A stretch of DNA of 51,953 bases from a virus (lineage: Duplodnaviria > Caudoviricetes), in IMG/VR virus record IMGVR_UViG_3300036670_000017, positions 1-51,953 of that record. One strand, written 5' to 3'. A program made the translations under genes and the position numbers. The notes beneath the pieces are model-generated. The model was given only the letters and a program-made list of their open reading frames with translations. It was not told the origin of the DNA and made no database searches. Positions 13,398 to 27,102 of the stretch are shown here, one piece after another (within the stretch, counting starts at the first letter, position 1; each line of letters starts with the position of its first letter).

Positions 13398-13426
13398 ATT
13401 CTACACCCACAACCCCTTTTGTCCAA
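13398..13426 (-). promoter_or_regulatory. Putative late promoter
   Basis: Minus strand TGGACA-16 bp-TAGAAT (or TTGGAC-17) in the terL-downstream gap. Confidence 0.45.
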
Positions 13427-13428
13427 CT

Positions 13429-14871
13429 TTATATCCAGCCGTTCATGCTAGCTTCCTCAACAACATGTGCCTTGCGCTTGGAAAACTTCCCGCCTTGTTG
13501 CGCATCGGCGTGCAGGGCTAGGTACTGCATAGCGTCAGCGATGTGCGACGCGTCGTTCTTCTCGGGCTTGTCTTCCAGCTCGCCGTTGGTCTTTAGCTTA
13601 TAGCGGTACTGGCCACGAAACGCGTTAATGAGCGGTCTGCAGGACGGGTCTACCAGAAAGCCAGCGCGGGTATCAACCTGCCTGTTGAGGAACTGCTCCA
13701 CCGCTGTAATACGCGCAATGATGCTGTTGGTGTATGCCGGTTGCGCTTGGAGGCCTTCTTGGTCTAAGATGTCATACACGGTTTTCTCGTCTGTCTGCGA
13801 ACGTGCGGTGCCAGCCGGGTCCCCGATAACTAGGATGGGCGCGCCCGGAAATGTCATCGACAGCTCGGGCTTCAGTATCGTGCGCAAGAAGCGCAGCAGC
13901 CCCATACCGTCTGCCGTTAGTGAGCGGTATATCAGCAGCCTACCCAGCGCGTCTATCTGCCCGACTACTGCCGACGGGTTCAGGCCGAAGTCCATGCCGA
14001 TAAGCACAGGCCGTAGGCCGTTTAGTATGGGTATTAGCGGCTTCTTGGCGACGTGGAAGTCCGCGTCAAAGCTACGGAACACGGGCTGTCCGGCAAGTGA
14101 CTTGCCGAACTTCGAGTGGATGTAGACGTCGACGTAGTCCTGCGTCTTGCCTTTGGCCAAGTTGTCGTAGTAGTTGCTGGGGAGAAGGTGAATCCAGTCC
14201 GCCTCTGGGCTCATACCCGACGGCTGAATCGTTACGTGGCAGTTATCTGGCGGGTCAATCAACAGCTTTTCCCAGAACGTGTCCATGTCTGGCGGGTTGC
14301 TCATCCCCCACAAGTGGCTGTTGGGTTTGCCGTCGTCAGTCACGCAGCCCTGTATGGGGTTGCCCTTTGCGTCATTACCCCACCCGGGCTTATGCGGCAC
14401 CATCATACCGTCAGGATAACGTCCCAGACGACCTTGGAGCGCCTCAAACACGTCCTTGTTAATCTCTCGAAACTCGTCAAGCACGGCAAAACTGGCCTGC
14501 AAAGACAACAGTCGGCGCACGTCGTTGGAGTCGTCCAAACCTCGAAACAATATCTCGCACTCTACGTCGTCTAGCTTCAGGAAGAACTTGTACTCGGTCT
14601 TGAGGAACGAGCCTGCCATACCATCCGGGAACCACTTGAGCACGTCGGGGATGCTCGTGTCTCGCAGCTGCTCGCGTGTGTTACGAACCCACACACAGCG
14701 AGAACGCCTGACACCATCCTTACACGGCGCCATGCGCTTAGCGTGGTACAGAATCTTAACGATACCGGCTGTCGTCTTGGTGGAGCCTACTGGTCCACAT
14801 ACCAGAGACAAGAAGTCTTCAGCCAAGAAAAACGGCACGAGAGTTTCGACCGGTGCGTATTGTGTGCTCAT
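13429..14871 (-). CDS. terL: Terminase large subunit
   Basis: Walker A GPVGSTKT, Walker B AVLDE, coupling motif SNPP, nuclease GMDFG and SHIADAMQY. Confidence 0.95.
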   Translation of the reverse strand: MSTQYAPVETLVPFFLAEDFLSLVCGPVGSTKTTAGIVKILYHAKRMAPCKDGVRRSRCVWVRNTREQLRDTSIPDVLKWFPDGMAGSFLKTEYKFFLKLDDVECEILFRGLDDSNDVRRLLSLQASFAVLDEFREINKDVFEALQGRLGRYPDGMMVPHKPGWGNDAKGNPIQGCVTDDGKPNSHLWGMSNPPDMDTFWEKLLIDPPDNCHVTIQPSGMSPEADWIHLLPSNYYDNLAKGKTQDYVDVYIHSKFGKSLAGQPVFRSFDADFHVAKKPLIPILNGLRPVLIGMDFGLNPSAVVGQIDALGRLLIYRSLTADGMGLLRFLRTILKPELSMTFPGAPILVIGDPAGTARSQTDEKTVYDILDQEGLQAQPAYTNSIIARITAVEQFLNRQVDTRAGFLVDPSCRPLINAFRGQYRYKLKTNGELEDKPEKNDASHIADAMQYLALHADAQQGGKFSKRKAHVVEEASMNGWI

Positions 14872-15425
14872 AGGTGGTCTTCCCCAGCGTACTGGTAGTC
14901 CTCTGGCTCATCTAAAAAGATATTGCTCAGAGCTTTCTTCTTTGCGCTGGGTAGCGTGATCGTGGGTACGTCTACAACATCTGCCTTGGCTATGTGCATG
15001 CCTTTGGCGGTTGTCGGCGCGGAACCGGGTATGTTGATGGTGATGCTGTACCCTGCACCAGTCTGTGTCTCCACAGTCTTGCGCGGCTCTAGGTCGCCCC
15101 ACTTGACCAAGTTCTCGACGATCTTAGCCCGCACTGCTGCAGGTATGTCGACATCTTTAGCCATCTGGTAGCTGTCTTTGAGCAGGTCTTCAGCAAGTAG
15201 TCGACACTTCGCGGCAAACGAAAAGCCGGAGTCGGTCAGCTCATTGACGTACGTCGTCACATACCCTGTGAACGTGGGGTTGGTTTTTATGGCGTCGTAT
15301 TCTTGCTGGGATATACCCTCAGCAGCTAGCACTTCATGCACCGGGGCATTGGCCCCGACCTGATTTCTTGCGACAGCTAAAGCTAAATCCCTAAGAAATA
15401 CGTCCGCGCTAATGGAGCGGTTCAT
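14868..15425 (-). CDS. Putative terminase small subunit (start likely ATG 15425)
   Basis: Immediately upstream of and overlapping terL; helical body with YSITINI beta-strand typical of TerS. Confidence 0.65.
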   Translation of the reverse strand: MNRSISADVFLRDLALAVARNQVGANAPVHEVLAAEGISQQEYDAIKTNPTFTGYVTTYVNELTDSGFSFAAKCRLLAEDLLKDSYQMAKDVDIPAAVRAKIVENLVKWGDLEPRKTVETQTGAGYSITINIPGSAPTTAKGMHIAKADVVDVPTITLPSAKKKALSNIFLDEPEDYQYAGEDHL

Positions 15426-15432
15426 GGCTGCC

Positions 15433-15460
15433 AATGTACCACATGTTCGTGGTGTGTCAA
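15433..15460 (-). promoter_or_regulatory. Late-arm promoter in front of terS
   Basis: Minus strand TTGACA-16 bp-TACATT with TGn extended -10. Confidence 0.6.
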
Positions 15461-15608
15461 TGGGGGCGTGGCTGGATAAACAATTTATGTGGCTGGGATG
15501 TTGTGGAAAAGATAGACTTGTAAAAATTAGGGGTCGCGTTACGCGGAACAGATCATATACCCCGGGGGGTACCCCCTATGGACGGGTGGAGGGGGTGGGG
15601 GTACCACC

Positions 15609-15662
15609 AACTACTGTCATGATGTCCGCGCCTCGCGACCGCGCCGCTGAACTACTGTCATA
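15609..15662 (+). repeat. Two copies of the 13-bp AACTACTGTCATR repeat
   Basis: Copies at 15609-15621 and 15650-15662. Confidence 0.9.
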
Positions 15663-15670
15663 AACTCCAG

Positions 15671-15686
15671 TAATTCCACGGGATTA
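15671..15686. repeat. Palindrome copy 1 (TAATTCC-AC-GGGATTA, one mismatch)
   Basis: Read directly; just upstream of the first early promoter. Confidence 0.85.
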
Positions 15687-15699
15687 CGATAATATTATG

Positions 15700-15729
15700 T
15701 TGCACACGTGGCGCGTTTGGCGTTATAAT
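15700..15729 (+). promoter_or_regulatory. Early promoter P1
   Basis: TTGCAC(A)...TATAAT (17-18 bp spacer) followed by a 5' stem-loop. Confidence 0.65.
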
Positions 15730-15804
15730 AACTCATGCCAACGAAAAGAGAACCTTTGTTGGCATGCGGCGCTTTCGCCAATACTTGTTTAAGGAAAATT
15801 TATC

Positions 15805-16446
15805 ATGACATCCGTTATCAACGCTAAAGTCACGCCCGCTGCTGCGGTCAAAGTCACGCCCGTTTTGCCAGCGGTGGCACGCGCCATAAACAGTGCAGTG
15901 ACCGCGAGCGCGTCTATGTTGTCCAAGACGCGCGAAGCTGCGCGCATGGCCAGCGAACAATTAGACGCCACGCTACCCTTGCGCGAGCGCATCGGCGCTA
16001 TCATGAGCGCGTACAGCTCAGAATTGTCTAAAGACCATAACGTCAAGGCTATATTCAGTGACACGTTGACCCTGTTGGCATGCGGACAAACTGAAGTTGT
16101 CGTTACCGTAGTAGGCAAAGAGGGCAAGATGGAAACCAGCACAACCGCAGCGCAAGCCGTAGACATGAGCAAGCACAACTTAAAAGCTGCTGCGCGTCAA
16201 GTTCGCGAAGCCCATGACATCGGGCGCACGGTCAAACCTCGCGAAGCCAAACCCGCCAGCGAAGCCAAACCAAAAGCGCAAAGCGCGCCTGACATGTTAT
16301 CCGTTGACGCGTTTTCTGAGTGGCTTGACATGTTGCCAGAATATTTAGGCGATAGCGTATTTCACCCGCGCATCGTGGCGGCGCTTATTGGCAAAGGCTA
16401 TACCCTCAACAAAGCCCTCAAGGGTCGCGCCATAACTGGAGTCTAA
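15805..16446 (+). CDS. First early gene, hypothetical protein (monocistronic)
   Basis: TAAGGA RBS, own promoter and terminator. Confidence 0.85.
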   Translation: MTSVINAKVTPAAAVKVTPVLPAVARAINSAVTASASMLSKTREAARMASEQLDATLPLRERIGAIMSAYSSELSKDHNVKAIFSDTLTLLACGQTEVVVTVVGKEGKMETSTTAAQAVDMSKHNLKAAARQVREAHDIGRTVKPREAKPASEAKPKAQSAPDMLSVDAFSEWLDMLPEYLGDSVFHPRIVAALIGKGYTLNKALKGRAITGV

Positions 16447-16451
16447 ACCCA

Positions 16452-16478
16452 AGACCGCCCGCAAGGGCGGTCTCTTTT
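16452..16478 (+). terminator. Rho-independent terminator
   Basis: AGACCGCCC-GCAA-GGGCGGTCT-CTTTT. Confidence 0.85.
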
Positions 16479-16503
16479 CGCTCAAAATTTTTGAGCCTAA
16501 CCA

Positions 16504-16594
16504 AACTACTGTCATGCTGCGCAGGCACTAACTACTGTCATGGTTGGGACGCATGAACTACTGTCATGGTTGGGACGCATGAACTACTGTCATG
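16504..16594 (+). repeat. Four AACTACTGTCATG repeats with 26-bp period (iteron-like)
   Basis: Copies start at 16504, 16530, 16556 and 16582. Confidence 0.95.
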
Positions 16595-16606
16595 GTGTCG
16601 AGGCAC

Positions 16607-16622
16607 TAATCCCACGGGATTA
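16607..16622. repeat. Palindrome copy 2 (TAATCCC-AC-GGGATTA)
   Basis: Read directly. Confidence 0.95.
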
Positions 16623-16739
16623 CGCAGCCCACTTGATGCATGAGGCCACGTCGAAAACAAGTTCGATACATGAGCCCGATGCATGCGCTGGATACTCCCC
16701 CCAGTATGCGAAAGCGGCAGTGAGAAGCGTGCAAGAAAA

Positions 16740-17160
16740 ATTTAGACGGGAAAAAAAATAGACAGCGTAACCCGCATGAAACCTAGGTTCTTGTTTTCTG
16801 TCTATGGATTTTCAGCAACTATTTTCCGAAAACGTGCACTGACCAACATACCCACAACTTATAAAACTGTCTAATCCTTTAAAATCAACGATGTATCGGG
16901 GGTGGGGGGTATGCAAAAAGCAACTGACTCTTATATATATATTTTTAATAGTTAAATAGATAGATAGATGGCTATTTTAGAACTCGGATTTCTCAAAATC
17001 CCCCAATCTCAAAATAGTTCAGACCCCAGATTTCCGAACTTCTCTCTTCTCCAAAAAACAATCTATTTGTCTATTCCTAGCAAAATCAACGGTCTATTTT
17101 TTCAATTCTGTCTATTTTGCCGCCAGCCCCGCTACCAAGCCATCTATCCACCCTCACTCG
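16740..17160. other. AT-rich non-coding region, candidate replication origin
   Basis: Most AT-rich stretch seen (TTATATATATATTTTTAATAGTTAAATAGATAGATAGA), repeated TGTCTA/TAGACA, adjacent to iteron-like repeats. Confidence 0.45.
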
Positions 17161-17162
17161 AC

Positions 17163-17191
17163 TTGACACGTGGCCAATATAATGCTACAAT
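17163..17191 (+). promoter_or_regulatory. Early promoter P2
   Basis: TTGACA-17 bp-TACAAT with TGn extension. Confidence 0.8.
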
Positions 17192-17243
17192 GTACTCATA
17201 CATCGAGAAACCCTTAGCGGCCACCTCGGTGTGTGCAGGTGCT

Positions 17244-17259
17244 TAATCCCACGGGATTA
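17244..17259. repeat. Palindrome copy 3 (AC core)
   Basis: In the P2 leader. Confidence 0.95.
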
Positions 17260-17302
17260 ACTGCCTACTAACTTGTTCACTTGTTCACTTAGGAAAATCA
17301 CT

Positions 17303-17929
17303 ATGACTATAGCAAACCACGCTGTTGCGCAGGGCTTCGTTCGCGGTCGCACCGCCAAAGGCTCTAACTTCAAGAGCGTAATCGCCAGCTCCACGGCCTC
17401 GCTTTCCAGCAGCGCATACGACACGTTCGAGGCGTGCCGCACCATATACAGCTACAGCACCGCAATTGCGCACATTGTGCTAAACAAAGTGTCAGACTGC
17501 ACCGAGCTGTGGCTAAGCCCCGAGGACTACAGCATGACAACACGCCAACACAAAGCGCACATCAGGTCTGCGTGGCGCGAGCTGTGCCACAAGCAAGGGC
17601 GAGACCCTGCAAACTACTTGTACCCCACACTTAACCGCAACCGCCCGCTCGACCTGATACCACCAGCTATAAAGCTACAGGGCGTGAACCACCCGCGCAT
17701 CAGGGAGAACACACGGCGTTGTGTCGTGAAGTCGTACCTGCACACCCTTAACGAGAACATAACCATAGCGACGCGAGACCTGCCCGAAGATAAGTGGGGC
17801 ACACCTGCCCGCGCGCAGTGGGGCAATGCCGTGGAGCTACGCACCAGTCTTATGAGCTGGCTCGAGTTGCCAGTGGACGATATGCGCGCTACCGTGACGG
17901 GGTATCTGGCACTTGAGGCCACGGCCTAA
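17303..17929 (+). CDS. Hypothetical early protein (start revised to ATG 17303)
   Basis: AGGA RBS; IYSYSTAIA...YSMTTRQH motif recalled from phage early proteins. Confidence 0.8.
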   Translation: MTIANHAVAQGFVRGRTAKGSNFKSVIASSTASLSSSAYDTFEACRTIYSYSTAIAHIVLNKVSDCTELWLSPEDYSMTTRQHKAHIRSAWRELCHKQGRDPANYLYPTLNRNRPLDLIPPAIKLQGVNHPRIRENTRRCVVKSYLHTLNENITIATRDLPEDKWGTPARAQWGNAVELRTSLMSWLELPVDDMRATVTGYLALEATA

Positions 17930-17942
17930 TCCCGTGGGATTA
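17927..17942. repeat. Palindrome copy 4 (GT core); supplies stop codon
   Basis: TAA 17927-17929 ends the upstream gene. Confidence 0.95.
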
Positions 17943-17968
17943 ACCACACAACACACTGGAGAGATGAC

Positions 17969-18106
17969 ATGACACAGCACAAACTAACAACACGCCAAGA
18001 CCAGCAAGACAGCGACAACAAGCTGTTCGCACTGCTGACCTACGTCGTACTAATAGTATCCGGCGTTGTTGCGCTGGCAACATACTTCGACGTGTTAACC
18101 AAATAA
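17969..18106 (+). CDS. Small single-TM membrane protein, 45 aa, absent from the ORF track
   Basis: Manual translation MTQHKLTTRQDQQDSDNKLFALLTYVVLIVSGVVALATYFDVLTK; GGAG RBS. Confidence 0.7.
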   Translation: MTQHKLTTRQDQQDSDNKLFALLTYVVLIVSGVVALATYFDVLTK

Positions 18107-18117
18107 GGAGAAACGAC

Positions 18118-18297
18118 ATGACACAAGTAGTAGTTAGCAAAGAACTATTGGAGCGGGTAATCAACTACCTGCAGGACGCCGAAGAAACCCACTACGAGGA
18201 GACCATAGACACCTACGGCGTTGACTCGGACGAAGTCAACTGGCACATATACGAGACCTGCCGCATCCTACGGTGCGAGATGGGAGAAATGGCATGA
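18118..18297 (+). CDS. Small acidic protein, 59 aa, absent from the ORF track
   Basis: Manual translation MTQVVVSKELLERVINYLQDAEETHYEE...; TAAGGAG RBS; ATGA overlap with the next gene. Confidence 0.75.
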   Translation: MTQVVVSKELLERVINYLQDAEETHYEETIDTYGVDSDEVNWHIYETCRILRCEMGEMA

Positions 18298-18461
18298 AGA
18301 AGTACACAGCCACGCTTGTCGTTACACACAAGCAAAACGTAGAAGTAGAAGTAGCCGACGACTGCACCCCAAAACAGTTACTCGCTCAGATAGGGGGCGA
18401 GTTCGACCTGTTCGCCTCAGAAGCAACCATAGCCATCGAAGATGTAGAGGAGTTGACATGA
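18294..18461 (+). CDS. Small acidic protein (MKKYTATLVV...)
   Basis: ATGA coupling at both ends; GGAG RBS. Confidence 0.7.
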   Translation: MKKYTATLVVTHKQNVEVEVADDCTPKQLLAQIGGEFDLFASEATIAIEDVEELT

Positions 18462-18631
18462 AAACCTACGCAGTAGAACTTAAGAGAACATCGTACGTCA
18501 CGCTAACCGTAGAGGCCGACACCCATGGAGAAGCCGAAGATTTGGCATGGGAGGAACTAGAGTCAGGCGAATCCTATGGCATTTCAGACGACGCCGACTG
18601 GGAAGTAAACGCTATTGACATAACCGACTAA
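18458..18631 (+). CDS. Small acidic protein, DpnD/PcfM-like (MKTYAVELKRTSYVTLTVEAD..EAE..A)
   Basis: GAGGAG RBS; pattern MKxYxV....V.VEA...EA. Confidence 0.7.
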   Translation: MKTYAVELKRTSYVTLTVEADTHGEAEDLAWEELESGESYGISDDADWEVNAIDITD

Positions 18632-18648
18632 CCGACGGGAGAACAAGT

Positions 18649-18864
18649 ATGACTGAGACCAACCAACGATACATAGAGGCGCAGCTCTTTGGGGCGGCCC
18701 CGCTGCCAGTGGACGAGATGAAAACCCTGCGCATCAAGCTCAGAACCGAGAAAGGCGAGACCAACTGGCTCAGCGTCAGCGCCACTGCGTACCGCGAGAT
18801 AGAGTCCAAGCTGATTCTGGACGCGCTGGCTAAAGACGGGGAGGCTAAGCATGACCGCGACTAA
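18649..18864 (+). CDS. Hypothetical protein
   Basis: GGAG RBS; ends in the palindrome TAA. Confidence 0.75.
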   Translation: MTETNQRYIEAQLFGAAPLPVDEMKTLRIKLRTEKGETNWLSVSATAYREIESKLILDALAKDGEAKHDRD

Positions 18865-19072
18865 TCCCATGGGATTACCGCAAGGCGTAGCCGAGCTAGA
18901 GCTTGCAGCGACGGCGCAAATGGCTAAGATAGCAGACACGTTAGCCCTGCTGCAGCAGGTGGACGTGAGCAGCGGCGTGGTGGAGGACTTGTGCGACATG
19001 TACGCCCACGTCGCCGTTGTCAGAGCGCGCTGTAGTTCGACACTATATATAAGGAGTAAACGAGATGTATGA
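18851..19072 (+). CDS. Hypothetical protein
   Basis: GGAGG RBS 6 nt before ATG; overlaps both neighbours. Confidence 0.6.
   Translation: MTATNPMGLPQGVAELELAATAQMAKIADTLALLQQVDVSSGVVEDLCDMYAHVAVVRARCSSTLYIRSKRDV
18862..18877. repeat. Palindrome copy 5 (AT core); supplies stop codon
   Basis: TAA 18862-18864. Confidence 0.95.
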
Positions 19073-19664
19073 CGACACCATCAAAACGTACGACGTGGCA
19101 GGCGCGGACGGCTTGCAGTACCGCGTGCGCGTATCACCTGACGACGACAGGCATCCGCTAGAGGACGCAGGTGACGACGCACTACCCATCATGGACACCG
19201 ACACGGACTGGGACACAAGCGACGCAGAAGAGTTCGAGGAGCACTGCACCGAGTACGAGCCCTCACTGGAGGAGGTCGCACGCTTGCGCATGCTGGAGCC
19301 AGTCGGGCGGTGGGCACGACACGCGCCGCGTCAGTATGTCGACGTAATGCGCACAGCGCACGCACTAGAGCGCGAGGGTGTGGAGCCTGCCTACGCGCTG
19401 GAGATTGCACGGGGCATGACCAAGTGGCTACAGGGCTGGTACAACGACGACTGGCACTACGTCGGCATCACTGTGACTGCACTGGACGAGCGTGGGGACG
19501 AGACAGACGACGAGCAAAGCCTGTGCGGCATCGAGTGGGACGAGTCCGCCGACGACCACGAGAAGGACGTCGCCGAATACGTCACTGACTTAGTGTACGA
19601 GTGCAGCCACGCAAGGCGCAGGGCTGCACACCCAAACCAGATGGAACTGAACTTTTACGCCTAA
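19065..19664 (+). CDS. Acidic hypothetical early protein
   Basis: TAAGGAG RBS; WYNDDWHYVG...SLCGIE motif recalled from phage early proteins. Confidence 0.85.
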   Translation: MYDDTIKTYDVAGADGLQYRVRVSPDDDRHPLEDAGDDALPIMDTDTDWDTSDAEEFEEHCTEYEPSLEEVARLRMLEPVGRWARHAPRQYVDVMRTAHALEREGVEPAYALEIARGMTKWLQGWYNDDWHYVGITVTALDERGDETDDEQSLCGIEWDESADDHEKDVAEYVTDLVYECSHARRRAAHPNQMELNFYA

Positions 19665-19677
19665 TCCCATGGGATTA
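19662..19677. repeat. Palindrome copy 6 (AT core); supplies stop codon
   Basis: TAA 19662-19664. Confidence 0.95.
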
Positions 19678-19695
19678 ACACACAGGAGAAACAAC

Positions 19696-19929
19696 ATGCT
19701 TCCAGCAGAACACAACCGCCGTACGCCCTACAACACAGGCAAAGTCCTGATTGGGCGCGACTACACCCCCGTAACGCGCCCAGCGCCAGCGTCTCAGGAT
19801 ATGGAGAACCTGCAGCTCGCACTGCTAAACAAGCCTAAGCTGCGCACCATAGAGCGCATCGCCTTGGGATTACTGTCATGCCTCGCGCTGGTCGTGCTCG
19901 CGCTCGACTTGTTCGTGTGGCGGCCATAA
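19696..19929 (+). CDS. Small protein with C-terminal TM helix (start revised to ATG 19696)
   Basis: AGGAG RBS; PYNTGKVLIG...DLFVWRP. Confidence 0.75.
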   Translation: MLPAEHNRRTPYNTGKVLIGRDYTPVTRPAPASQDMENLQLALLNKPKLRTIERIALGLLSCLALVVLALDLFVWRP

Positions 19930-19940
19930 TAGCCAAGAGC

Positions 19941-19969
19941 TTGACAGTGTAAGCCATTTAGGTTATAAT
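19941..19969 (+). promoter_or_regulatory. Early promoter P3, perfect sigma70 consensus
   Basis: TTGACA-17 bp-TATAAT. Confidence 0.9.
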
Positions 19970-20021
19970 AATACCTGTAGCGACACAAAACGCCGCTACG
20001 TTACTCGTTCACTTCAATACT

Positions 20022-20037
20022 TAATCCCACGGGATTA
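20022..20037. repeat. Palindrome copy 7 (AC core)
   Basis: In the P3 leader, before the RBS. Confidence 0.95.
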
Positions 20038-20054
20038 GCAACCAAGGAAATCAT

Positions 20055-20936
20055 ATGTCTATCAAAGACCACGCATTGCTTGTGTCACTCACTGTGTCCA
20101 AGCCTCAGATGACTGCCAAAGACGGCAAGGCGACTCGCGACGCAGAAAACGCCAACAACGCCTCAGGCGCTGGGCACTACCGCAAAGACTTGTACCCCAA
20201 GACGCTAGTTGCACCCATCATGGCTGTAGAGTCCGCAACCCGCGCCTACATCGACAGCCAGACCTACATGTGGGTTCGCGGCGAGTACTTACTGCCGACC
20301 ACGCGCTTTATGGTGTTCGCAGAGCGCATCGGCAAGTTCGAGGTCGAGTTTAGCCAAGCCGTCACAGCGTTTCTTAACAACTGGGCGCAGGTGATGCAGA
20401 TGGCACAGAGTCACCAAGGTGACTTGTTCGACGCCTCAGCGTACCCCGACCTTGAAGACCTCAAGAGCGACTTCCGCTTCCGTGTGCACTACCGCCCAGT
20501 CACTGACCAGCACGACTTCCGTGTCGAGTTGCAAGAGGCTGAGCTTGACTTGCTGCGTACGCAGGTCGAGGCGGCCACCAAAGACAGCATGGAGTCCATG
20601 TTGCGCCATCCGCTCGAGCGACTGCGCGACGTAGTAACCCGTCTAAACGAGGTCGCCAAGAAGCAAGACCGCACTGTTGTCAACAAACGCACGGGCGTCG
20701 CTGACATCAAGGCGCCGATATTTCGTGACTCGGTGGTCGACAACATCGTAGAGGAGATTGGGTTGTTGCACGACTTCGCGGCCATTCTGCCAGACAACAT
20801 ACTGGCCATGGCTCAAGATGTCGCGGCTGCGACACCAAACGCAAACCATTTACGTGATGACCCCACCGCGCGCACTGCTGTCGGCATCAAGACTGACGCG
20901 TTGCTCGAATCCATTAACAGCATGCTGGAGAACTAA
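20055..20936 (+). CDS. DUF3150-like protein
   Basis: Pattern ALLVSLTVS...K.L...T..W..GEYLLP...F...F...Y P....L...F.F...FRDS recalled for this family; co-occurs with AAA and VWA genes. Confidence 0.6.
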   Translation: MSIKDHALLVSLTVSKPQMTAKDGKATRDAENANNASGAGHYRKDLYPKTLVAPIMAVESATRAYIDSQTYMWVRGEYLLPTTRFMVFAERIGKFEVEFSQAVTAFLNNWAQVMQMAQSHQGDLFDASAYPDLEDLKSDFRFRVHYRPVTDQHDFRVELQEAELDLLRTQVEAATKDSMESMLRHPLERLRDVVTRLNEVAKKQDRTVVNKRTGVADIKAPIFRDSVVDNIVEEIGLLHDFAAILPDNILAMAQDVAAATPNANHLRDDPTARTAVGIKTDALLESINSMLEN

Positions 20937-20938
20937 CC

Positions 20939-21163
20939 ATGGCCAACACACTCGCAGTACTCAGCTTTAACTCGGTAGAGTACTTGCTCGACGCCGATGA
21001 CGCATGCGCCGCATTTGCTCTGATTAGCAAGGGCCGCCGCGTCGATTATTCGTATGGCAAAGAGGGATACGTGTACAAGGAGTCGACGCGGCATGACACT
21101 CTTACAGTCCGCATGTTTTCTGAGGTCGAGCTGGGTAAGCTAAACCTCGAAGCCCCAGAGTAA
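20939..21163 (+). CDS. Hypothetical protein
   Basis: GGAG RBS; ends in the palindrome TAA. Confidence 0.75.
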   Translation: MANTLAVLSFNSVEYLLDADDACAAFALISKGRRVDYSYGKEGYVYKESTRHDTLTVRMFSEVELGKLNLEAPE

Positions 21164-21192
21164 TCCCACGGGATTAACACACCACTAACTAA
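21159..21192 (+). repeat. 34-bp direct repeat A, containing palindrome copy 8 (21161-21176)
   Basis: AGTAATCCCACGGGATTAACACACCACTAACTAA, identical to 21560-21593. Confidence 0.95.
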
Positions 21193-21201
21193 GGAACTAC
21201 C

Positions 21202-21564
21202 ATGTCAATTATCGGAACCACTGTGTCACTTAAAAAAGCAACCATTAAAAAGTACGCCCGACACCTCGCCGCGCTAGGCTGCACGTTCAAGGTCATCGAA
21301 GATGATGGCACTGAGCACGGCACACTCGTCGCGACTGCGCCAACCAAAGGTCGCGCCGATGTTATCGGTCGCATTGACTACAAGACAGCCCTCGCTAAAC
21401 TAGCAGTGGGCGAGCTTATAGAGCTACCCATACCGGAAGGCCTCACAGGCGTAACGGTGCAGTCGACAGTCTCAGCGTGCGCAAACGCCATGTACGGCGC
21501 TGGCGCAATCACGTCGTCCGTAAACAGAAAGACAAACCGCCTCGAAGTGCTACGCCTTCAGTAA
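21202..21564 (+). CDS. Hypothetical protein, possible small DNA-binding domain
   Basis: TAAGGA RBS; C-terminal LAVGE.IELP...helix...LEVLR resembles small winged DNA-binding domains (weak). Confidence 0.75.
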   Translation: MSIIGTTVSLKKATIKKYARHLAALGCTFKVIEDDGTEHGTLVATAPTKGRADVIGRIDYKTALAKLAVGELIELPIPEGLTGVTVQSTVSACANAMYGAGAITSSVNRKTNRLEVLRLQ

Positions 21565-21593
21565 TCCCACGGGATTAACACACCACTAACTAA
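21560..21593 (+). repeat. 34-bp direct repeat B, containing palindrome copy 9 (21562-21577)
   Basis: Identical to 21159-21192. Confidence 0.95.
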
Positions 21594-21617
21594 CTTGTTC
21601 ACTACTAAGGAATCATC

Positions 21618-22625
21618 ATGCGTATCAAAAACATCACCCCAGTATTAGCCAAGCGCTACCTCAACGACAGCGTGCGTGCCCGCACAGTGTTCTTGCGTGG
21701 CCCATCAGGCATCGGCAAATCACAGGTCGTCTTTCAAGCCAGCGACTTGCTCCGCGAGCACGTCAAAGACTGGCAGGGCGTCGTCGACTTGCGCCTTGCG
21801 CAGATGGAGCCCACCGACTTGCGCGGCGTGCCATACATCGAGAAAGGTCGCACTGTGTGGGGTCGTCCAGACTTCCTGCCCCAGACCGGCGCCGGTATTT
21901 TGTTCTTAGACGAGCTTACATCAGCCCCGCCGTCAGTACAGGCAGCTGCGTACCAGCTGTGCCTGACGCCAGAAGACTTCGGCATCCCATCGACGTGGAT
22001 GGTGGTAGCCGCAGGTAACCGCAAGACAGACCGAGGCGTGACGTTTAACCTAGCTGCGCCACTGCAGAACCGCATGTGTGATGTCGAGGTGTCCACATCG
22101 CTCGACGACTTCACAGACCACGCCATCACCAAGGGTGTGCGTCCAGAGGTGCTGTCGTTCTTGCGTGACCGCCCCGACTTGCTGCACAAGTTTGAGCCTG
22201 CTGGTGAGATTCGTGCGTTCCCTAGCCCACGCTCGTGGTTTGCTGTATCCGACTTGCTGGCTTGTGACATGCCCAGCGCCGAGCGGCTGGAGCAGGTGTG
22301 CGGTGACATTGGCGAGGAAGCTGGCAAAGTGTTCGAGACGCACTTGCGAGTGTGGGAGACCATGCCACGCATAGACGACATACTGGCAGGCAAAGACTTG
22401 CCAGTCCCCAAGGAGCTAAACGTGCGGTACTGTGTCGCTATGGGCTTGGCCGCACGCATTGATTCTAAGAACTTTGACAACGCGTGGAAGTTCTTATCTC
22501 AGATGCCCGGCGACATTCAGACGCTAGTCATGCGACTGGCTTACAAGCGAGACCGAAAAATCGCAGTGAGCCCAGCGTTCGCGAAGTGGTGCACGGCTAA
22601 CGCCGATGCGTTCCGACGTGATTAA
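21618..22625 (+). CDS. MoxR/dynein-related AAA+ ATPase
   Basis: Walker A GPSGIGKS, DLRG.P, Walker B ILFLDE, AAGN sensor, PL.NR arginine finger, PSPRSW. Confidence 0.92.
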   Translation: MRIKNITPVLAKRYLNDSVRARTVFLRGPSGIGKSQVVFQASDLLREHVKDWQGVVDLRLAQMEPTDLRGVPYIEKGRTVWGRPDFLPQTGAGILFLDELTSAPPSVQAAAYQLCLTPEDFGIPSTWMVVAAGNRKTDRGVTFNLAAPLQNRMCDVEVSTSLDDFTDHAITKGVRPEVLSFLRDRPDLLHKFEPAGEIRAFPSPRSWFAVSDLLACDMPSAERLEQVCGDIGEEAGKVFETHLRVWETMPRIDDILAGKDLPVPKELNVRYCVAMGLAARIDSKNFDNAWKFLSQMPGDIQTLVMRLAYKRDRKIAVSPAFAKWCTANADAFRRD

Positions 22626-22881
22626 GGACTTGCACCCCGACTTGCGCGTGTCTAAGACGTCGAGCGGGTACGACATACGCCGCGTAGTGAAGCAACACAC
22701 CACAGCCAACCAGCTGTGGATGACAAACTTTGCAACAGTGCGGTACGGGCGCAGCGCTATGCACGACAGCGGGTCGGGGTGGGTACTTAGTGTCGGTGTG
22801 TTCGACGACATTACTATGCACGACACGCTTGACGCGGCGCTGCTGCACGCAGTTGCGCTATATAATTTACAGCACGGCTAA
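22606..22881 (+). CDS. Hypothetical protein between AAA and VWA genes
   Basis: Overlaps the AAA stop and ends in the palindrome TAA; start uncertain (22606 or GTG 22618). Confidence 0.6.
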   Translation: MRSDVIKDLHPDLRVSKTSSGYDIRRVVKQHTTANQLWMTNFATVRYGRSAMHDSGSGWVLSVGVFDDITMHDTLDAALLHAVALYNLQHG

Positions 22882-22894
22882 TCCCACGGGATTA
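22879..22894. repeat. Palindrome copy 10 (AC core); supplies stop codon
   Basis: TAA 22879-22881. Confidence 0.95.
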
Positions 22895-22918
22895 GCAACT
22901 TGTTTACTGGAGAATACG

Positions 22919-24082
22919 ATGACAACTTTAGAGAGCCGCCTAGATACTGCGTACAGCAAGCTAGGCCTACGCGAGCCGTTTATTGCGGCAGTCATGACCA
23001 AAGTTAAGCGCGAGGTCAGCGACAAGATACCCACGGCTGGAACCAACGGCACATGGGCGAAGTTCAACCCAACTTTCTGCGAGCCCTTGAGCGCAGAGCA
23101 GTTGTTTGGCCTCGTGCTCCACGAGTCCTGCCACGTCATACTTCAGCATATGTGGAGGCGGGATGGGCGCGACGCCAAGCTATGGAACATCGCCAACGAC
23201 GCCATCATCAACCGCTACATAGCCAACCGAGGGTACGTGTTGCCTGACGGCGGTGTAGACCTGCGCTGGGTCACAGAAGAGCACAGCTCAGACTACGTGT
23301 ACAACAAACTAAAGCAGCAGCAGCCGCAGCAGCAGCAGCAGCAGCAGGGTAACGGTAACGGTAACGGTGACGGTGACGGTGACGACGAGGGTACTGGTGA
23401 CGCAGGTGGCTTTGACGGCACCGGCGACTTGTACGAGCCAGACGGCGCTGTGAGCGAGGCGGACATGCAGGTGACCATCGCCGCCGCAGCGCAGATGGCG
23501 AAGGACTGCGGGCACGGCACATCGATGACTGCGCGCGTACTGGGTGCACTAGGTGTGCCCAACGTACCGTGGTCTGACGTGCTGCGCTCCATGCTCACCG
23601 ACAGCTCAGCAGCCGACTATTCGTACAGGCGACCATCGCGTCGGTTCATAGGACAAGGGTTGTACCTACCTTCACTGCGCACAGACGCACTAGGCGGGTT
23701 AGCCATTGGCTTTGACACGTCAGGCTCGGTCAGTCCCAGCGACTGCGACAAGATGGCCACAGAGATTCGTGCCATTGTGTCTGACTTGCGCCCAGCGTTT
23801 GTCGAGGTCATATACTGCGACTCTAGTGTGTCGTCAGTGGAGCGCTTTGAGCAAGACGACGACGTAGTGCTGCACCCCACTGGCGGTGGCGGCACTAGGT
23901 TCAAGCCGGTGTTTGACCACGTTGCGCAGTCAGATGACTTCTACGCAGGCATGGTGTTCTTTACAGACATGGAGGGCAACCTCGCAGAGTGCGAGGAGCC
24001 GGAGTTTCCAGTGATATGGGCTAACGTCGGATACGCCGACTACGCGCCGCCATTTGGCACAGTGACAAAAGTAACTTTATAG
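22919..24082 (+). CDS. DUF2201-type metallopeptidase + VWA domain protein (start revised to ATG 22919)
   Basis: PTAGTNG, HESCH (HExxH), WNIAND, low-complexity linker, RPSRR, MIDAS DTSGS, GGGGTRF, FFTD. Confidence 0.9.
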   Translation: MTTLESRLDTAYSKLGLREPFIAAVMTKVKREVSDKIPTAGTNGTWAKFNPTFCEPLSAEQLFGLVLHESCHVILQHMWRRDGRDAKLWNIANDAIINRYIANRGYVLPDGGVDLRWVTEEHSSDYVYNKLKQQQPQQQQQQQGNGNGNGDGDGDDEGTGDAGGFDGTGDLYEPDGAVSEADMQVTIAAAAQMAKDCGHGTSMTARVLGALGVPNVPWSDVLRSMLTDSSAADYSYRRPSRRFIGQGLYLPSLRTDALGGLAIGFDTSGSVSPSDCDKMATEIRAIVSDLRPAFVEVIYCDSSVSSVERFEQDDDVVLHPTGGGGTRFKPVFDHVAQSDDFYAGMVFFTDMEGNLAECEEPEFPVIWANVGYADYAPPFGTVTKVTL

Positions 24083-24090
24083 AGACCGAC

Positions 24091-24372
24091 ATGAGCAACA
24101 CATTTGACAAAGACCTTTACAACCGCATGGCCCGCATCGAGAGCAAACTGGTGCGCGGCTTCGAAGAGCTGGGCGTAAACATCGCCACAGCGCCTGACTG
24201 GCTCACAGTGGACGACACATCACGCGTGGTGTACATATCGTCAATGGGCCGGTCCCTCATGGTCATCATGAGCGACATGGCGCGGCGCGGCGCATCGCAG
24301 TACGGCAACGAGTACACGCTGGTGCACCAAGGTGACGAGGTGGGCACACTCGTTTTCGCCAAAGCACGATAG
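24091..24372 (+). CDS. Hypothetical protein
   Basis: Tightly packed in the operon; RMARIESKLVR motif. Confidence 0.75.
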   Translation: MSNTFDKDLYNRMARIESKLVRGFEELGVNIATAPDWLTVDDTSRVVYISSMGRSLMVIMSDMARRGASQYGNEYTLVHQGDEVGTLVFAKAR

Positions 24373-24383
24373 GAAATACTATC

Positions 24384-24893
24384 ATGAGCAAGCTAATCGA
24401 CAAGATACAAGGCCTAGCCGTAGAAGATGACGGCTGCTGGGTTTGGCAAGGCGCCGTGCAAAGCAGCGGTGCGCCAGTCATGAAATTTAATGGCTCAGTA
24501 AGCACTGTGCGCCGACTTATCGTGCTGGCCAGAGGCCTTGCCTTACCTGCTAGCAAAGTAGCGACATACACGTGCCACAACAAGTTGTGTGTGCACCCAA
24601 ACCACACAGCAATGCGCGACAAAGGGGCCGTAATCAAGCGCGGGCACAAAGAGAAGGACGAAGGCCACCGGCTTGCGCTAAACCATAAGCGCGCGCTGTC
24701 AAAACGCAAGGGCGCCAAGCTAGACATGGACAAAGCACGCGAAATACGTGCGTCGAGTGAGAGCACAGCGGAACTGGCGCGGAAGTACGGCGTTACAAAG
24801 TACTGCGTGTGGCAAGTACGGCGCGGGGAGTCTTGGAAAGAGTACGGCGCGGCCAACCCATTCGCAGCGCTGGTCCAGTGCGCACACAAATAG
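24384..24893 (+). CDS. HNH endonuclease-like protein with C-terminal HTH
   Basis: DGCWVWQG...TCHNKLCVHPNH; C-terminal AELARKYGVT....QVRRG..W. Confidence 0.75.
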   Translation: MSKLIDKIQGLAVEDDGCWVWQGAVQSSGAPVMKFNGSVSTVRRLIVLARGLALPASKVATYTCHNKLCVHPNHTAMRDKGAVIKRGHKEKDEGHRLALNHKRALSKRKGAKLDMDKAREIRASSESTAELARKYGVTKYCVWQVRRGESWKEYGAANPFAALVQCAHK

Positions 24894-24908
24894 CCCGACA
24901 GGCAACAT

Positions 24909-25394
24909 ATGAGAAAACGAAGCAAATACCGCCCCAAACACGTACTGCAGAACCCGTTGGAGTATGTGCGCGAGAACATGGCACCGATTGCCCAGCACGG
25001 GAGCTACTTGGTGACACTAAAGATACGCAACAGCGACGCGATGGTTAAGCTGTTGCGTGGTCAAGCTAGCGTGCCCGACATGAACACGTTGGTGGCGATG
25101 AGCAACATCACAGAGGCCCTATGCTTTATGAACTTCGGCAAGGAGCACGTAGACATCGCTGAGCGCGGACGGCACGCCATTATCGCGATTGTGGAGCGCG
25201 CTAAGACAACGAACCGATTTACGCCAACAGGGTTAGAGGTGCAAGCACTGAACGAGCTAATGGAGTTGCACGACGCCCAGATGGATGTGCTGACAGTGAA
25301 AGACATGGACGCAGCGATACATTACGCGAGGCGTGCGCAGAACCGACCCAATGTGGTCAGGCTGCCCGTCGTCAACGTAACCCCTGTAACTTAG
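24909..25394 (+). CDS. Conserved hypothetical phage protein (MRKRSKYRPK)
   Basis: Long ORF in operon context. Confidence 0.8.
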   Translation: MRKRSKYRPKHVLQNPLEYVRENMAPIAQHGSYLVTLKIRNSDAMVKLLRGQASVPDMNTLVAMSNITEALCFMNFGKEHVDIAERGRHAIIAIVERAKTTNRFTPTGLEVQALNELMELHDAQMDVLTVKDMDAAIHYARRAQNRPNVVRLPVVNVTPVT

Positions 25395-25402
25395 GAACCA
25401 AC

Positions 25403-25852
25403 ATGAGTATCGACACAATTAACTTGTGGCACAAACGTGCCCGCCCCGAGCCAACTTACGCAGACTTTAACGTGCAGCTGGGCTGCCACTTCGAGGAGAT
25501 AGCAGAGATGCTTGTTGCCTTAGAGGGTGACAACGCGCCGACACGCAACCAGCTAAGCAACGCGCGCATGACCATCATGACGCTGGCCGAAGGATTTAAG
25601 TCGGGCCGGTTTGAGGCGTTCGCGAGTCCCCGTGCCGAGTTCTTGGACTCGCTCGCCGACCAAGTGGTGACGGCTATTGGCACAGGACATTGTGATGGGT
25701 TCGACATGGTGGAGGCGCTGCGCATTGTTGACGAGAGCAACTGGTCGAAGTTCGACTTCAATGGCTTGCCGACGTTTAACGAAGCGGGCAAGATAACAAA
25801 AGGGCCAAGATACAAAGCGCCTGACTTAACCGACGTCGTAGGCGTCAAGTAA
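25403..25852 (+). CDS. MazG-like / PRA-PH NTP pyrophosphohydrolase
   Basis: EEIAE, EFLDSLADQVV, SNWSK, GKITKGPRYKAPDL. Confidence 0.85.
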   Translation: MSIDTINLWHKRARPEPTYADFNVQLGCHFEEIAEMLVALEGDNAPTRNQLSNARMTIMTLAEGFKSGRFEAFASPRAEFLDSLADQVVTAIGTGHCDGFDMVEALRIVDESNWSKFDFNGLPTFNEAGKITKGPRYKAPDLTDVVGVK

Positions 25853-25853
25853 C

Positions 25854-25869
25854 TAATCCCATGGGATTA
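25854..25869. repeat. Palindrome copy 11 (AT core)
   Basis: 1 nt after the MazG-like stop codon. Confidence 0.95.
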
Positions 25870-25886
25870 GACCGAGGAGAAATGGA

Positions 25887-26228
25887 ATGAGCACTGAAGC
25901 CGAACAAGGAGAAGAACACATGACCATCGACAACACCACAGGTAAAGATAAAGAGTTTTACGAACTTGGCCAAAGAATGTTTGATAGGTTAAAACCACTC
26001 AAGCCCAGCAAACCGCAAGAAGATATTGACTTGCTGTACCAAGTAAGCAGTGCAGACATTGAAGCGTTGGAAGACGCAAAGATTACGCTGAATGTCATCA
26101 AAGAAGTAGAACCCGGCGTTTACGACGAAATCATTGATTCGTCTTTGTCGTTGATAGACAAAGCATTAGGTATGAGCTACGGCGACGCGATGGAACGAGT
26201 TGCAATCAGAGCAGGGAGTAAGTCATGA
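25887..26228 (+). CDS. Hypothetical protein (alternative start 25920)
   Basis: Both ATGs have an SD sequence. Confidence 0.7.
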   Translation: MSTEAEQGEEHMTIDNTTGKDKEFYELGQRMFDRLKPLKPSKPQEDIDLLYQVSSADIEALEDAKITLNVIKEVEPGVYDEIIDSSLSLIDKALGMSYGDAMERVAIRAGSKS

Positions 26229-26536
26229 CACGAGAAGAATTGATGGCAGACGACACGCAGTATTGCTGCTACTGCGGGTGCGAGGTAAATGCACGGTTCC
26301 AATGCTGTGGTGAGAACCACTTCCATACCTTTGCTCAAATGTCTGCCGAGGAGCAGGACGAGTTCTTGGACAACGAGGAGTGCGCCCCGCTTTACACATC
26401 AACACAACCACACAAGCCTTGGGTTGGACTGACGGATGATGAGATATGGAGTGTTTACAAGCAAGTGGACTCAATGCAATATGTAGAATTTGCACACGCC
26501 GTTGAAGCCAAACTCAAGGAGAAGAACAATGGCTAA
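26225..26536 (+). CDS. Hypothetical protein with Cys cluster and PWVGLTDDEI module
   Basis: YCCYCG...CCGENHF; C-terminal WVGLT..E...EAKLKEKN typical of small phage genes. Confidence 0.75.
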   Translation: MTREELMADDTQYCCYCGCEVNARFQCCGENHFHTFAQMSAEEQDEFLDNEECAPLYTSTQPHKPWVGLTDDEIWSVYKQVDSMQYVEFAHAVEAKLKEKNNG

Positions 26537-26768
26537 GCTAATCGACTTCCCCCTTGGCCTCGATGCAGGCGAGACGCGCCTTGAACTTGACCCCGACGAG
26601 GTGCTCACTGGAGCAGTGGGCAAGCTAACGGAAGTGGTCATTGTTGGCTACGAGGCCGACGGCTCATTGTATTTTGCGTCTACTGGAACACATGGGCCGG
26701 ATGTGCTGTGGCTACTGAAACAGGCTGAGCAGAGCCTCTTGGCTATTGAAAGGGAGATGAGGACATGA
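26529..26768 (+). CDS. Hypothetical protein (start revised to ATG 26529)
   Basis: AAGGAG RBS; DPDEVL..A...VVIVGY..DG..YFAS motif. Confidence 0.75.
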   Translation: MAKLIDFPLGLDAGETRLELDPDEVLTGAVGKLTEVVIVGYEADGSLYFASTGTHGPDVLWLLKQAEQSLLAIEREMRT

Positions 26769-26989
26769 GCGCAAACAACGCGCTACGCAGCCGGATTAGC
26801 AGCGACGGGTCTACGTGTATAGACCCAGACTACTACTGGCAAGAGCTGGACAACGCACCCCACGGCGTTAAAGTACAACTGCTGTCTATCTACGGCGTGG
26901 CGGTGTACGGCACGCTTAGCGGGGCAGCGATTAAGACGGGGTTTTGGCAGTACTGGGCCCCACTACCTAAAGTAAAGAAGGAGCAGTGA
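26765..26989 (+). CDS. Hypothetical protein (DUF551-like C-terminus WAPLP)
   Basis: ATGA overlap; P.GVKVQLL...GVAVYG...WAPLP. Confidence 0.7.
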   Translation: MSANNALRSRISSDGSTCIDPDYYWQELDNAPHGVKVQLLSIYGVAVYGTLSGAAIKTGFWQYWAPLPKVKKEQ

Positions 26990-27102
26990 TATGTTGATAT
27001 GGACAGGCGAAGTCGTGCTTGGGCAGCGGCGATACGGAGTGAGCTTTCGCAGTGGGTGGTTTATAGGCGTCACCCGCACAACCTTCATCTAAAGGAGCAG
27101 AC

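Follow-up and report, generated by a model that had tools for sequence, protein, structure and literature searches.

What are eleven near-identical palindromes doing among the early genes of an uncultured phage? The question arises in a Caudoviricetes genome, IMG/VR record IMGVR_UViG_3300036670_000017, whose 51,953 bp we analysed as a whole (hereafter the window); the record has 92-bp direct terminal repeats and its completeness is rated 100%. A first-pass annotation, made from the sequence alone, had listed eleven copies of TAATCCC-RY-GGGATTA (R, purine; Y, pyrimidine) between 15671 and 25869 and none elsewhere. Scanning both strands with up to two mismatches, we recovered exactly those eleven copies, all within that interval, and the same cores (AC in seven, AT in three, GT in one). 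Shuffled sequences led us to expect 0.02 copies and none of 100 shuffles reached 11; relaxing the scan to three mismatches added one chance-level match, at 17514 (0.66 expected). The reading that we favour, and to which sequence comparison lends an even chance, is that the palindromes are operators in duplex DNA for the first early protein of the phage, which would bind them symmetrically and shut off the early region.

The copies are placed closely with respect to genes (Table 1). The first TAA had been read as the stop codon of the upstream gene in six of them (17927, 18862, 19662, 21161, 21562 and 22879), and the list of open reading frames (ORFs) bears this out for all six. A further overlap was found at 17244, with the end of ORF 16968-17246, which may not be a gene because none of 41 related loci has a homologue of it and a promoter-like site lies within it. 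The other placements proposed in the annotation were also recovered: one copy 1 nt past a stop codon (25854), two in the leaders of promoters P2 and P3 (17244 and 20022) and one just upstream of P1 (15671). In relatives, 108 of 170 sites had a first TAA that closed a frame running open through the upstream context, and 120 of the 170 were followed by a Shine-Dalgarno sequence 0-50 nt past the site. The spacers between palindrome and ribosome-binding site had been described as rich in A and C; what we saw across relatives was a poverty in G (12% of 2,339 spacer bases), with CTTRTTYAY present in 49 of 170.

The same motif organizes the early regions of related phages. The exact pattern was found in at least 118 IMG/VR stretches and, with the locus of the window excluded, at least 41 loci had three or more copies, invariably grouped among the early genes. 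An equally specific control pattern, TATTCCCNNGGGAATA, was found in 97 stretches, nearly all of them single-copy. In five of five related whole records, 6-11 copies were grouped in one stretch of about 6-16 kb, and the reversed pattern had no copies. We also picked gene junctions by the downstream protein alone and looked for the motif no further than 110 nt from the start codon. It preceded the homologue of gene 20055-20936 in 20 of 25 distinct relatives, the ATPase gene in 23 of 26 and the VWA-like gene in 22 of 28. Flanking coding ends and leaders at these junctions had diverged throughout, and the proteins were 30-79% identical to those of the window; the core at one junction drifted among AC, GT, AT and GC while the arms stayed fixed. 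Neither the 16-mers nor the 14-mers of the motif matched the literature text searched (PubMed Central (PMC) articles under Creative Commons licences, and bioRxiv). In one sub-clade (loci L040, L061, L028, L034, L030/L057, L115, L042, L026, L084, L113 and L129), the motif or a one-mismatch form lies inside the DNA polymerase gene, where it encodes FNPMEL, FNPMGL or FNPTGL with its synonymous positions fixed, and some of these phages changed amino acids in ways that perfected the motif. The homologous place in the window polymerase, at about 27.7 kb, encodes FSHAEL and has no motif.

A widespread motif of this kind might instead be the site of a host regulator or nucleoid protein, or of a CTP-dependent clamp of the ParB/Noc/KorB type. 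Its 7-2-7 geometry and a variant form, TATTCCC..GGGAATA, resemble the Noc-binding site (NBS), and several dispersed copies are typical of KorB and N15 SopB sites. However, 119 of the 120 matches listed among bacterial and archaeal genome contigs were single-copy, as by chance, and the sole multi-copy contig among them, with three copies, was a related phage contig inside a metagenome-assembled genome. A host regulon was rejected on this single-copy pattern. A phage-borne specificity factor fits better, because relatives of differing base composition have the identical motif and 86%-identical phages differ in it. The likeness to parS and NBS drawn in the first-pass annotation did not lead to a binder either: Pfam and PHROGs scans, which covered early and large proteins, revealed no ParB-like domain. 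We therefore regard a host or clamp site as highly improbable.

The internal anatomy of the site bears on whether it is read as DNA or as RNA. Among 177 unique exact sites, oriented by neighbouring genes, the core was always purine-pyrimidine (AC 71, AT 51, GT 41, GC 14). Position -1 was C or T in 92% (0.57 + 0.35) and position +1 was A or G in 90% (0.67 + 0.23); the true unit is therefore 18 bp, Y-TAATCCC-R|Y-GGGATTA-R, with the half-site Y-TAATCCC-R. Pairing between -1 and +1 was not above independence (69 observed versus 77.1 expected in 170 sites), the commonest combination being C...A. Both the flanks and the R-Y core are mirror-symmetric between half-sites, so the oriented asymmetry of L5-type sites is not seen here. 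One-mismatch variants were far more numerous than in the shuffle (22 versus 0) and fell at positions 1, 5 (C>T) or 12 (G>A). None of these 22 carried a compensatory stem change, and one of four two-mismatch variants did; when oriented, the variants were mostly G12>A on the coding strand, which would give a C.A mismatch in RNA.

These features weigh on the alternative that the motif works as an RNA hairpin, with a 6-bp stem and a CRYG loop, bound by a phage or host protein as a lambda N/boxB-like element for processive antitermination, a 5'/3' stabilizer or a processing site between cistrons. Approximately a fifth of the sites lie at +35 to +60 of strong sigma70-like leaders, between a variable 5' stem-loop and a G-poor spacer with a Shine-Dalgarno sequence, and the first early product is basic, has a Gly/Arg/Lys-rich linker and would be made first, as lambda N is. 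The core is mildly biased on the coding strand towards AC over GT, and a concerted change from TAAT to TATT, described below, alters both arms such that RNA pairing is kept. The hairpin itself is weak, however (-5.6 to -8.7 kcal/mol; z -0.7 to -3.0; 4-nt loop). No T run follows the palindrome; only the copy at 22879 passed a terminator-like scan (5 T in its tail), and that scan of the early region returned 15 candidates against 14 expected by shuffles. The only variable part is the core, which would form the loop, and the arms are invariant, the opposite of a boxB-type element with a conserved loop and a stem that may covary. Hybrid sites and those of one divergent locus, L274, are not self-complementary, the -1 and +1 positions are constrained yet unpaired, and the first copy lies 5' of the -35 hexamer in 31 of 33 scorable loci. 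No Rfam family matched. A hairpin that does covary stands close by: many relatives (L121, L102, L084, L104, L064, L081 and L032; the window lacks it) have one between the palindrome and the ribosome-binding site of the ATPase gene, its stem varying by phage yet staying paired around a conserved GCGGTTC or GCGGTCC loop, which is true covariation, unlike the palindrome. An RNA hairpin, one of three options raised in the first-pass annotation, thus loses ground, and we consider it unlikely.

We compared the placement of 248 unique sites in protein-oriented loci with that of same-strand sigma70-like promoters scoring 10-12 of 12. In 50 site-promoter pairs the -10 hexamer ended 40-69 nt before the site, the leader position also seen at P2 and P3 (52 nt). 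Ten sites started 5-10 nt past a -10 and 12 lay just 5' of a -35; the opposite-strand control gave 1. Most of the 248 sites, including seven of the eleven in the window, had no promoter 40-69 nt upstream. For the site before the first early gene we examined 55 unique upstream regions, counting promoters that scored at least 9. Both site and promoter were found in 33 of them, with 31 sites 2-14 nt 5' of the -35, two overlapping the promoter and none downstream; a site without a promoter call was found in a further 12 regions, and 10 had no site. The first copy is therefore outside the transcript that it would control. Early leaders of relatives have a recurrent box, GAGTCGGAAAGCG, GAGTGGGAAAGCG or GGACTAGGGGATCGCCC, 10-30 nt past the -10, apparently part of the 5' stem-loop that precedes the palindrome, and the P3 leader of the window has a hairpin, GTAGCG...CGCTAC, at 19977-19999.

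The gene that follows the first copy proved to head the whole array. We fetched 65 loci by homology to the first early protein (alignment A1), ignoring the motif. Where at least 3 kb downstream was available (n = 33), 29 loci had four or more TAATCCC-type sites, three had the TATTCCC variant and one (L274) a third variant. Where at least 400 nt upstream was available (n = 57), a site lay within 400 nt of the first early gene in 45, and the 47 loci with at least 3 kb upstream had no site in the 295,923 nt beyond those 400 nt. The first early gene is therefore bracketed by the first two sites, at the head of the array. In the window the unit runs as two copies of AACTACTGTCAT, site 1, P1, the gene, a strong terminator-like hairpin, four copies of AACTACTGTCAT and site 2, and the same order is found in L400 and L274. 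AACTACTGTCAT, which includes the word CTGTCAT, has seven exact copies in the window against 0.15 expected, six flanking the first early gene and the seventh at 5355-5366; relatives have ACTACTATCA(C/T) at the equivalent location. The repeat probably represents a second element for protein binding in the control region of the early genes.

A natural switch of the motif connects the sites to this protein. In L290, L292, L298 and L299 (four contigs) and in L308, equivalent junctions have TATTCCC-RY-GGGAATA, with a few hybrids (TAATCCC..GGGAATA). L037 and L298 are 85.7% identical in DNA over 4 kb and carry TAATCCC and TATTCCC, respectively, at orthologous sites; their first early proteins show several differences, including alanine in L298 in place of the otherwise nearly invariant His78. 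We tallied residue 78 against the motif over 94 loci. The 80 loci with His78 had 355 TAATCCC and no TATTCCC sites, three with Asn78 had 22 TAATCCC sites, and nine with Ala78, from five contigs, had no TAATCCC, 21 TATTCCC and four hybrid sites. Ser78 occurred in L274 only, which has neither; its sites, at the same junctions, are TATT-AYY-RY-RRT-AATA-like and non-self-complementary. In 44 TAATCCC-type proteins, 38 columns are conserved to at least 85%; of these, H78 and L174 alone differed in all five variant proteins, and the L174 difference is explained by phylogeny because the His-bearing sister L037 already has isoleucine there. In IQ-TREE analyses, L308 (Ala) was sister to L014 (His) with support of 98/95, and the L313 group (Ala) was sister to L037 (His) with 100/99. 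The best tree thus has two origins of alanine, and a single origin appeared in no bootstrap tree. In an AlphaFold model of the first early protein (pLDDT 82), helix 78-92 starts with His78 and bears the most conserved motif of the family, HNVKAxFxDALTL. L274 also has a long tandem array at 9630-9860, built from the 12-nt unit CGCTGCACGGGA and variants.

Mirror constraints, stem pairs that do not covary, hybrid and imperfect sites, a copy outside the transcript and the concerted switch all argue that the motif is duplex DNA read by a symmetric phage protein. On the sequence evidence, the palindrome is probably a DNA site for some protein. The first of the three options in the annotation, a single dimeric protein serving the whole early region, is favoured to this extent, and the regulator would probably be dimeric. 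Of the three proteins named there as possible binders (products of 15805-16446, 21202-21564 and 24384-24893), that of 15805-16446 is the best candidate, because its gene heads the array and it carries the co-varying residue; for this specific protein we put the case a little short of even.

Several observations count against assigning the sites to this protein. An approximately unbiased (AU) test failed to reject a single origin of Ala78 (p 0.092); the co-variation comes down to two, perhaps three, events, and a sign test on two of two independent pairs cannot be significant. L308, L014 and L274 have long branches. Clade-specific changes at conserved columns also occur elsewhere (4 of 186 in the ATPase, 7 of 167 in the VWA-like protein, 1 of 90 in the 20055 product and 1 of 29 in the 24091 product), and the sister contrast was available for the first early protein only, not for these four. 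A different trans factor could still lie behind the switch. Residue 78 is no simple one-to-one code, because Asn78 proteins keep TAATCCC. Profile searches of Pfam, PHROGs and the PDB with the first early protein were blank; its model has no recognizable DNA-binding fold, Foldseek against the PDB returned no match with E below 0.79, and a wide VIA structural search gave generic helical-bundle matches only (Z ≤ 7.1). Lastly, the mild strand bias and the surplus of mixed A/G cores may have an RNA-level or a historical origin, and an RNA element would likewise fit the regular position of sites within 5' leaders, ahead of a G-poor spacer and a Shine-Dalgarno sequence.

Family members with Ala, Val or Ile at residue 78 also occur in the protein collection (P0024, P0028, P0018 and P0019); scans for DNA encoding P0028 and P0019 returned only a known Asn78 contig and a His78 relative, L400, with three TAATCCC sites. 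PDB profile searches with alignments A1, A2 and A3 were blank or at chance level, and a Pfam scan of all members of A1 and A3 gave scattered single-member matches (best E 0.0017). The leads for the first early protein in a protein atlas, DUF3102 and Phage_Repressor_c, were weak (0.79-0.80), the 0.79 of Phage_Repressor_c falling in a range that is often chance; for 17303-17929 the atlas lead was DUF8033. The other early proteins, examined for a relative of the L5 repressor gp71, likewise gave no Pfam, PHROG or PDB match.

Since the copies are identical repeats of 16-34 nt, they are also points at which recombination could add or remove single genes, and a further alternative makes this their primary role, as junctions for single-gene cassettes exchanged between co-infecting relatives in the manner proposed for the promoter-early stem-loop (PeSL) elements of T4-type phages. 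One metagenomic contig (run X4) joins 21158 to 21560 with exactly the 401-nt unit 21159-21559 gone, and 34 letters at the joint fit both sides. These letters are a 34-nt exact duplication, the palindrome plus ACACACCACTAACTAA, at 21159-21192 and 21560-21593, which brackets gene 21202-21564; the contig is the single case of the PeSL-type loss of one gene between copies. Accessory genes vary among relatives at junctions that retain the palindrome, and in 240 of 1,032 cases the point where similarity between relatives broke off lay no more than 25 nt from a palindrome, compared with 6% of random positions. This enrichment is weak evidence and biased, because a conserved island anchors the alignment ends, and random positions rather than palindrome-free gene borders served as the control. 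Against a primary role in recombination, gene order is syntenic across relatives, other rearrangement joints in the same runs lie away from palindromes (18122/18449 and 18631>18113), and homology would require neither mirror constraints nor an R-Y core. Nor does such a role explain the site abutting the -35, the site inside the polymerase gene or the concerted switch, and no recombinase was found by Pfam and PHROGs among the window proteins scanned, which cover part of the ORFs.

A strict mobile cassette, one gene in differing contexts, was rejected for gene 21202-21564, whose homologue always lies between the same two core genes. The cassette junctions of the first-pass annotation thus keep one natural deletion in their favour and lose to synteny and to the fixed place of this gene. 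We regard recombination as the primary role as distinctly unlikely, and recombination at the palindromes as likely a side effect rather than their purpose. The regions 17919-18752 and 25842-27092 reach a metagenome word depth of hundreds to 1,700 against about 10 elsewhere, and the replacement and reordering joints just named were observed with them; these small-gene modules seem to be common to far more abundant phages in the same lakes.

A final alternative is that the motif serves a phage RNA polymerase, either as a hairpin promoter like those of the N4 virion polymerase or as the promoter or terminator of some other phage-encoded enzyme. The ATPase and the VWA-like protein have relatives in N4-like phages (about 30% identity), and a 2,045-aa ORF without family stands amid the virion genes. 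On the other side, strong sigma70-type promoters precede the early units, no RNA-polymerase family matched among the proteins scanned, and the sites lack the strand asymmetry that a template-strand hairpin promoter requires. In addition, a start a few bases past the hairpin, as N4 spacing would have it, would cut off the Shine-Dalgarno sequence, because the latter lies 0-5 nt past the palindrome in 32 of 170 sites. We give this alternative hardly any weight.

Under the operator reading, the early units would be transcribed by host sigma70 RNA polymerase from P1, P2 and P3. First to be made would be the regulator, whose gene forms a unit by itself with a terminator at its end; the regulator would bind the site abutting its own -35, which would make it autoregulatory. 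It would also bind the leader sites at about +35 to +60 of the other early units and the gene-junction sites further on, and the bound regulator would block or stop transcription of 15.7-25.9 kb. The replication and late modules, which have no sites, would remain free, a logic like that of stoperators. Repression or a roadblock is favoured because sites abut the -35, cover the start site and sit in leaders and at gene junctions; this sign of regulation is nevertheless tentative, and we hold it with somewhat less than even confidence.

How does this arrangement compare with known systems? The stoperators of L5 and other Cluster A phages are described as many short sites in transcribed regions, mostly in short intergenic gaps, that halt elongating host polymerase; one copy lies at the promoter of the regulator's own region, and motif and repressor specificity diverge together (PMC9283540, PMC6550527). 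The sites are also described as asymmetric, oriented with transcription and monomer-bound (PMC9283540) and as spread genome-wide, up to about 30 (PMC6550527). The present sites are alike in being multi-copy and mostly intergenic in transcribed regions (11 in the window, 6-11 in five relatives), in having a copy at the promoter of the candidate regulator, in the joint divergence of motif and candidate protein and in the proposed stopping of polymerase. They differ in being perfect palindromes with mirror constraints, confined in 6-11 copies to the early region, and no similarity between the candidate protein and any family was detected. In Cluster A, whose phages are temperate, the repressor maintains lysogeny; here, no integrase or lysogeny gene was found by Pfam and PHROGs among about 45 window proteins scanned, covering part of the ORFs. 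The stoperator analogy of the first-pass annotation therefore stands for location and, likely, logic, and falls for asymmetry and orientation. The temperate phage phiC31 offers another parallel, in that its repressor c binds an inverted repeat of about 17 bp found in many intergenic gaps among the early genes; a literature search gave no paper describing these repeats. No resemblance of the candidate protein to repressor c in sequence or fold was seen. ParB-parS, Noc-NBS and KorB-OB use 13-16-bp palindromes in several dispersed copies with a dimeric binder, and KorB represses at a distance. Here, unlike at a partition locus, the sites are fixed relative to promoters and gene borders in a phage early operon.

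PeSL elements combine a strong sigma70-like early promoter with a stem-loop at the borders of small early genes, and neighbouring copies recombine, deleting or circularizing genes (PMC2839356, PMC4122927); their stem-loops are given as stable terminators with G/C tracts, variable in sequence and found at several positions with respect to the promoter (PMC2839356). The 50 site-promoter pairs among 248 sites and the one natural variant without one unit recall PeSL. The palindrome is unlike it in forming a weak hairpin with no T run rather than a stable terminator, in being invariant across the clade, in often lacking a promoter and in being tied to one residue. In the T1-like virulent phage TLS, intergenic direct repeats along transcription were compared with stoperators by the authors (PMC11447400). 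Those repeats are direct, AT-rich and of other sequence, with no cognate protein proposed. Integron attC sites are recombined by a tyrosine-recombinase integrase and are longer, imperfect palindromes with extrahelical bases. The sites here are perfect palindromes of 16-18 bp, and no integrase was found among the proteins scanned. By analogy, then, the element would be a regulator circuit with multiple operators, its protein family unassigned and its site palindromic, nearest in logic to L5-type stoperators.

Table 1. Palindromes and associated features of the early region (window coordinates)
Feature	Position	Strand	Description
Palindrome 1 (O1)	15671-15686		TAATTCCACGGGATTA (TAATTCC..., one mismatch); 14 nt 5' of the -35-like hexamer of P1
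Palindrome 2	16607-16622		Core AC; past terminator and direct repeats
Palindrome 3	17244-17259		Core AC; P2 leader, 52 nt past -10, before gene 17303-17929
Palindrome 4	17927-17942		Core GT; TAA is stop of gene 17303-17929 (ORF 17273-17929)
Palindrome 5	18862-18877		Core AT; TAA is stop of ORF 18649-18864
Palindrome 6	19662-19677		Core AT; TAA is stop of gene 19065-19664
Palindrome 7	20022-20037		Core AC; P3 leader, 52 nt past -10, before gene 20055-20936
Palindrome 8	21161-21176		Core AC; TAA is stop of ORF 20939-21163; in left copy of 34-nt repeat 21159-21192
Palindrome 9	21562-21577		Core AC; TAA is stop of gene 21202-21564; in right copy of 34-nt repeat 21560-21593
Palindrome 10	22879-22894		Core AC; TAA is stop of ORF 22606-22881; before DUF2201/VWA-like gene 22919-24082
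Palindrome 11	25854-25869		Core AT; 1 nt past MazG-like gene 25403-25852; last copy, before replication module
First early gene	15805-16446	+	213 aa, P0001, pI 9.5; candidate palindrome binder; His78 codon 16036-16038
P1, sigma70-like promoter	15701-15729	+	TGCACA-17-TATAAT, 10/12; consensus match only
P2, sigma70-like promoter	17163-17191	+	TTGACA-17-TACAAT, 11/12, with TG
P3, sigma70-like promoter	19941-19969	+	TTGACA-17-TATAAT, 12/12
Terminator-like hairpin	16452-16483	+	9 pairs, 7 G-C, then T run; directly 3' of first early gene
Direct repeat AACTACTGTCAT, two copies	15609-15661	+	At 15609 and 15650; just 5' of palindrome 1
Direct repeat AACTACTGTCAT, four copies	16504-16593	+	At 16504, 16530, 16556 and 16582; 26-nt spacing; just 5' of palindrome 2
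AAA ATPase gene	21618-22625	+	Early region, rightward block
DUF2201/VWA-like protein gene	22919-24082	+	Early region, rightward block

The early region stands at the start of a rightward block of genes (15805-36403) in which small early genes come first, an HNH endonuclease and the MazG-like protein follow the VWA-like gene, and DNA polymerase, exonuclease, helicase and primase-helicase form the end. Leftward genes occupy 1-15434, including those for tail fibre proteins, the major head protein, an SU10-like portal and the large terminase, and again 36654-50714, including one for a transglycosylase protein. DNA runs that contain the early region carry the label salt-lake metagenome. Megablast of 15000-26500 against cultured phages gave no match; protein searches found distant relatives only (Pseudomonas phage Rollin 24%, Rhizobium phages 26%, cyanophages 28%), with N4-like phages as the nearest cultured relatives of the ATPase and the VWA-like protein. 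Rfam and tRNA scans matched nothing. The 2,045-aa ORF (36654-42791, minus strand) has no sequence match in Pfam, PHROGs or the PDB and, given the N4-like early genes of this phage, could be an ejected giant protein or a polymerase. The early protein encoded at 19065-19664 is very acidic (pI 4.3, 25% Asp+Glu) and conserved, with homologues in 15 of 41 related loci; that it is a DNA mimic or an anti-restriction protein is only a guess.

If the operator reading is true, an uncultured clade (at least 41 multi-copy IMG/VR loci and 54 protein clusters) runs its early programme through a small protein and an 18-bp operator, and a role would be assigned to a protein family listed as hypothetical in every database searched here. 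The regulatory repeats would double as recombination points that drive gene turnover in the early region. The circuit would be portable and reusable, with the natural pairs of His/Ala and TAAT/TATT as a ready specificity switch and a source of orthogonal repressor-operator pairs of undescribed fold. A bolder extension, which we consider doubtful, is that the first early protein is the founding member of an undescribed master-regulator family whose DNA-binding fold is new, that His78, at the start of a helix, reads base pair 3 of each half-site, and that lineages have re-tuned protein and operators together (TAATCCC, TATTCCC and TATTAYY) into mutually blind groups. Were it true, it would amount to immunity-type divergence in apparently virulent, N4-related phages, and it could decide which co-infecting relative shuts off whose early genes.

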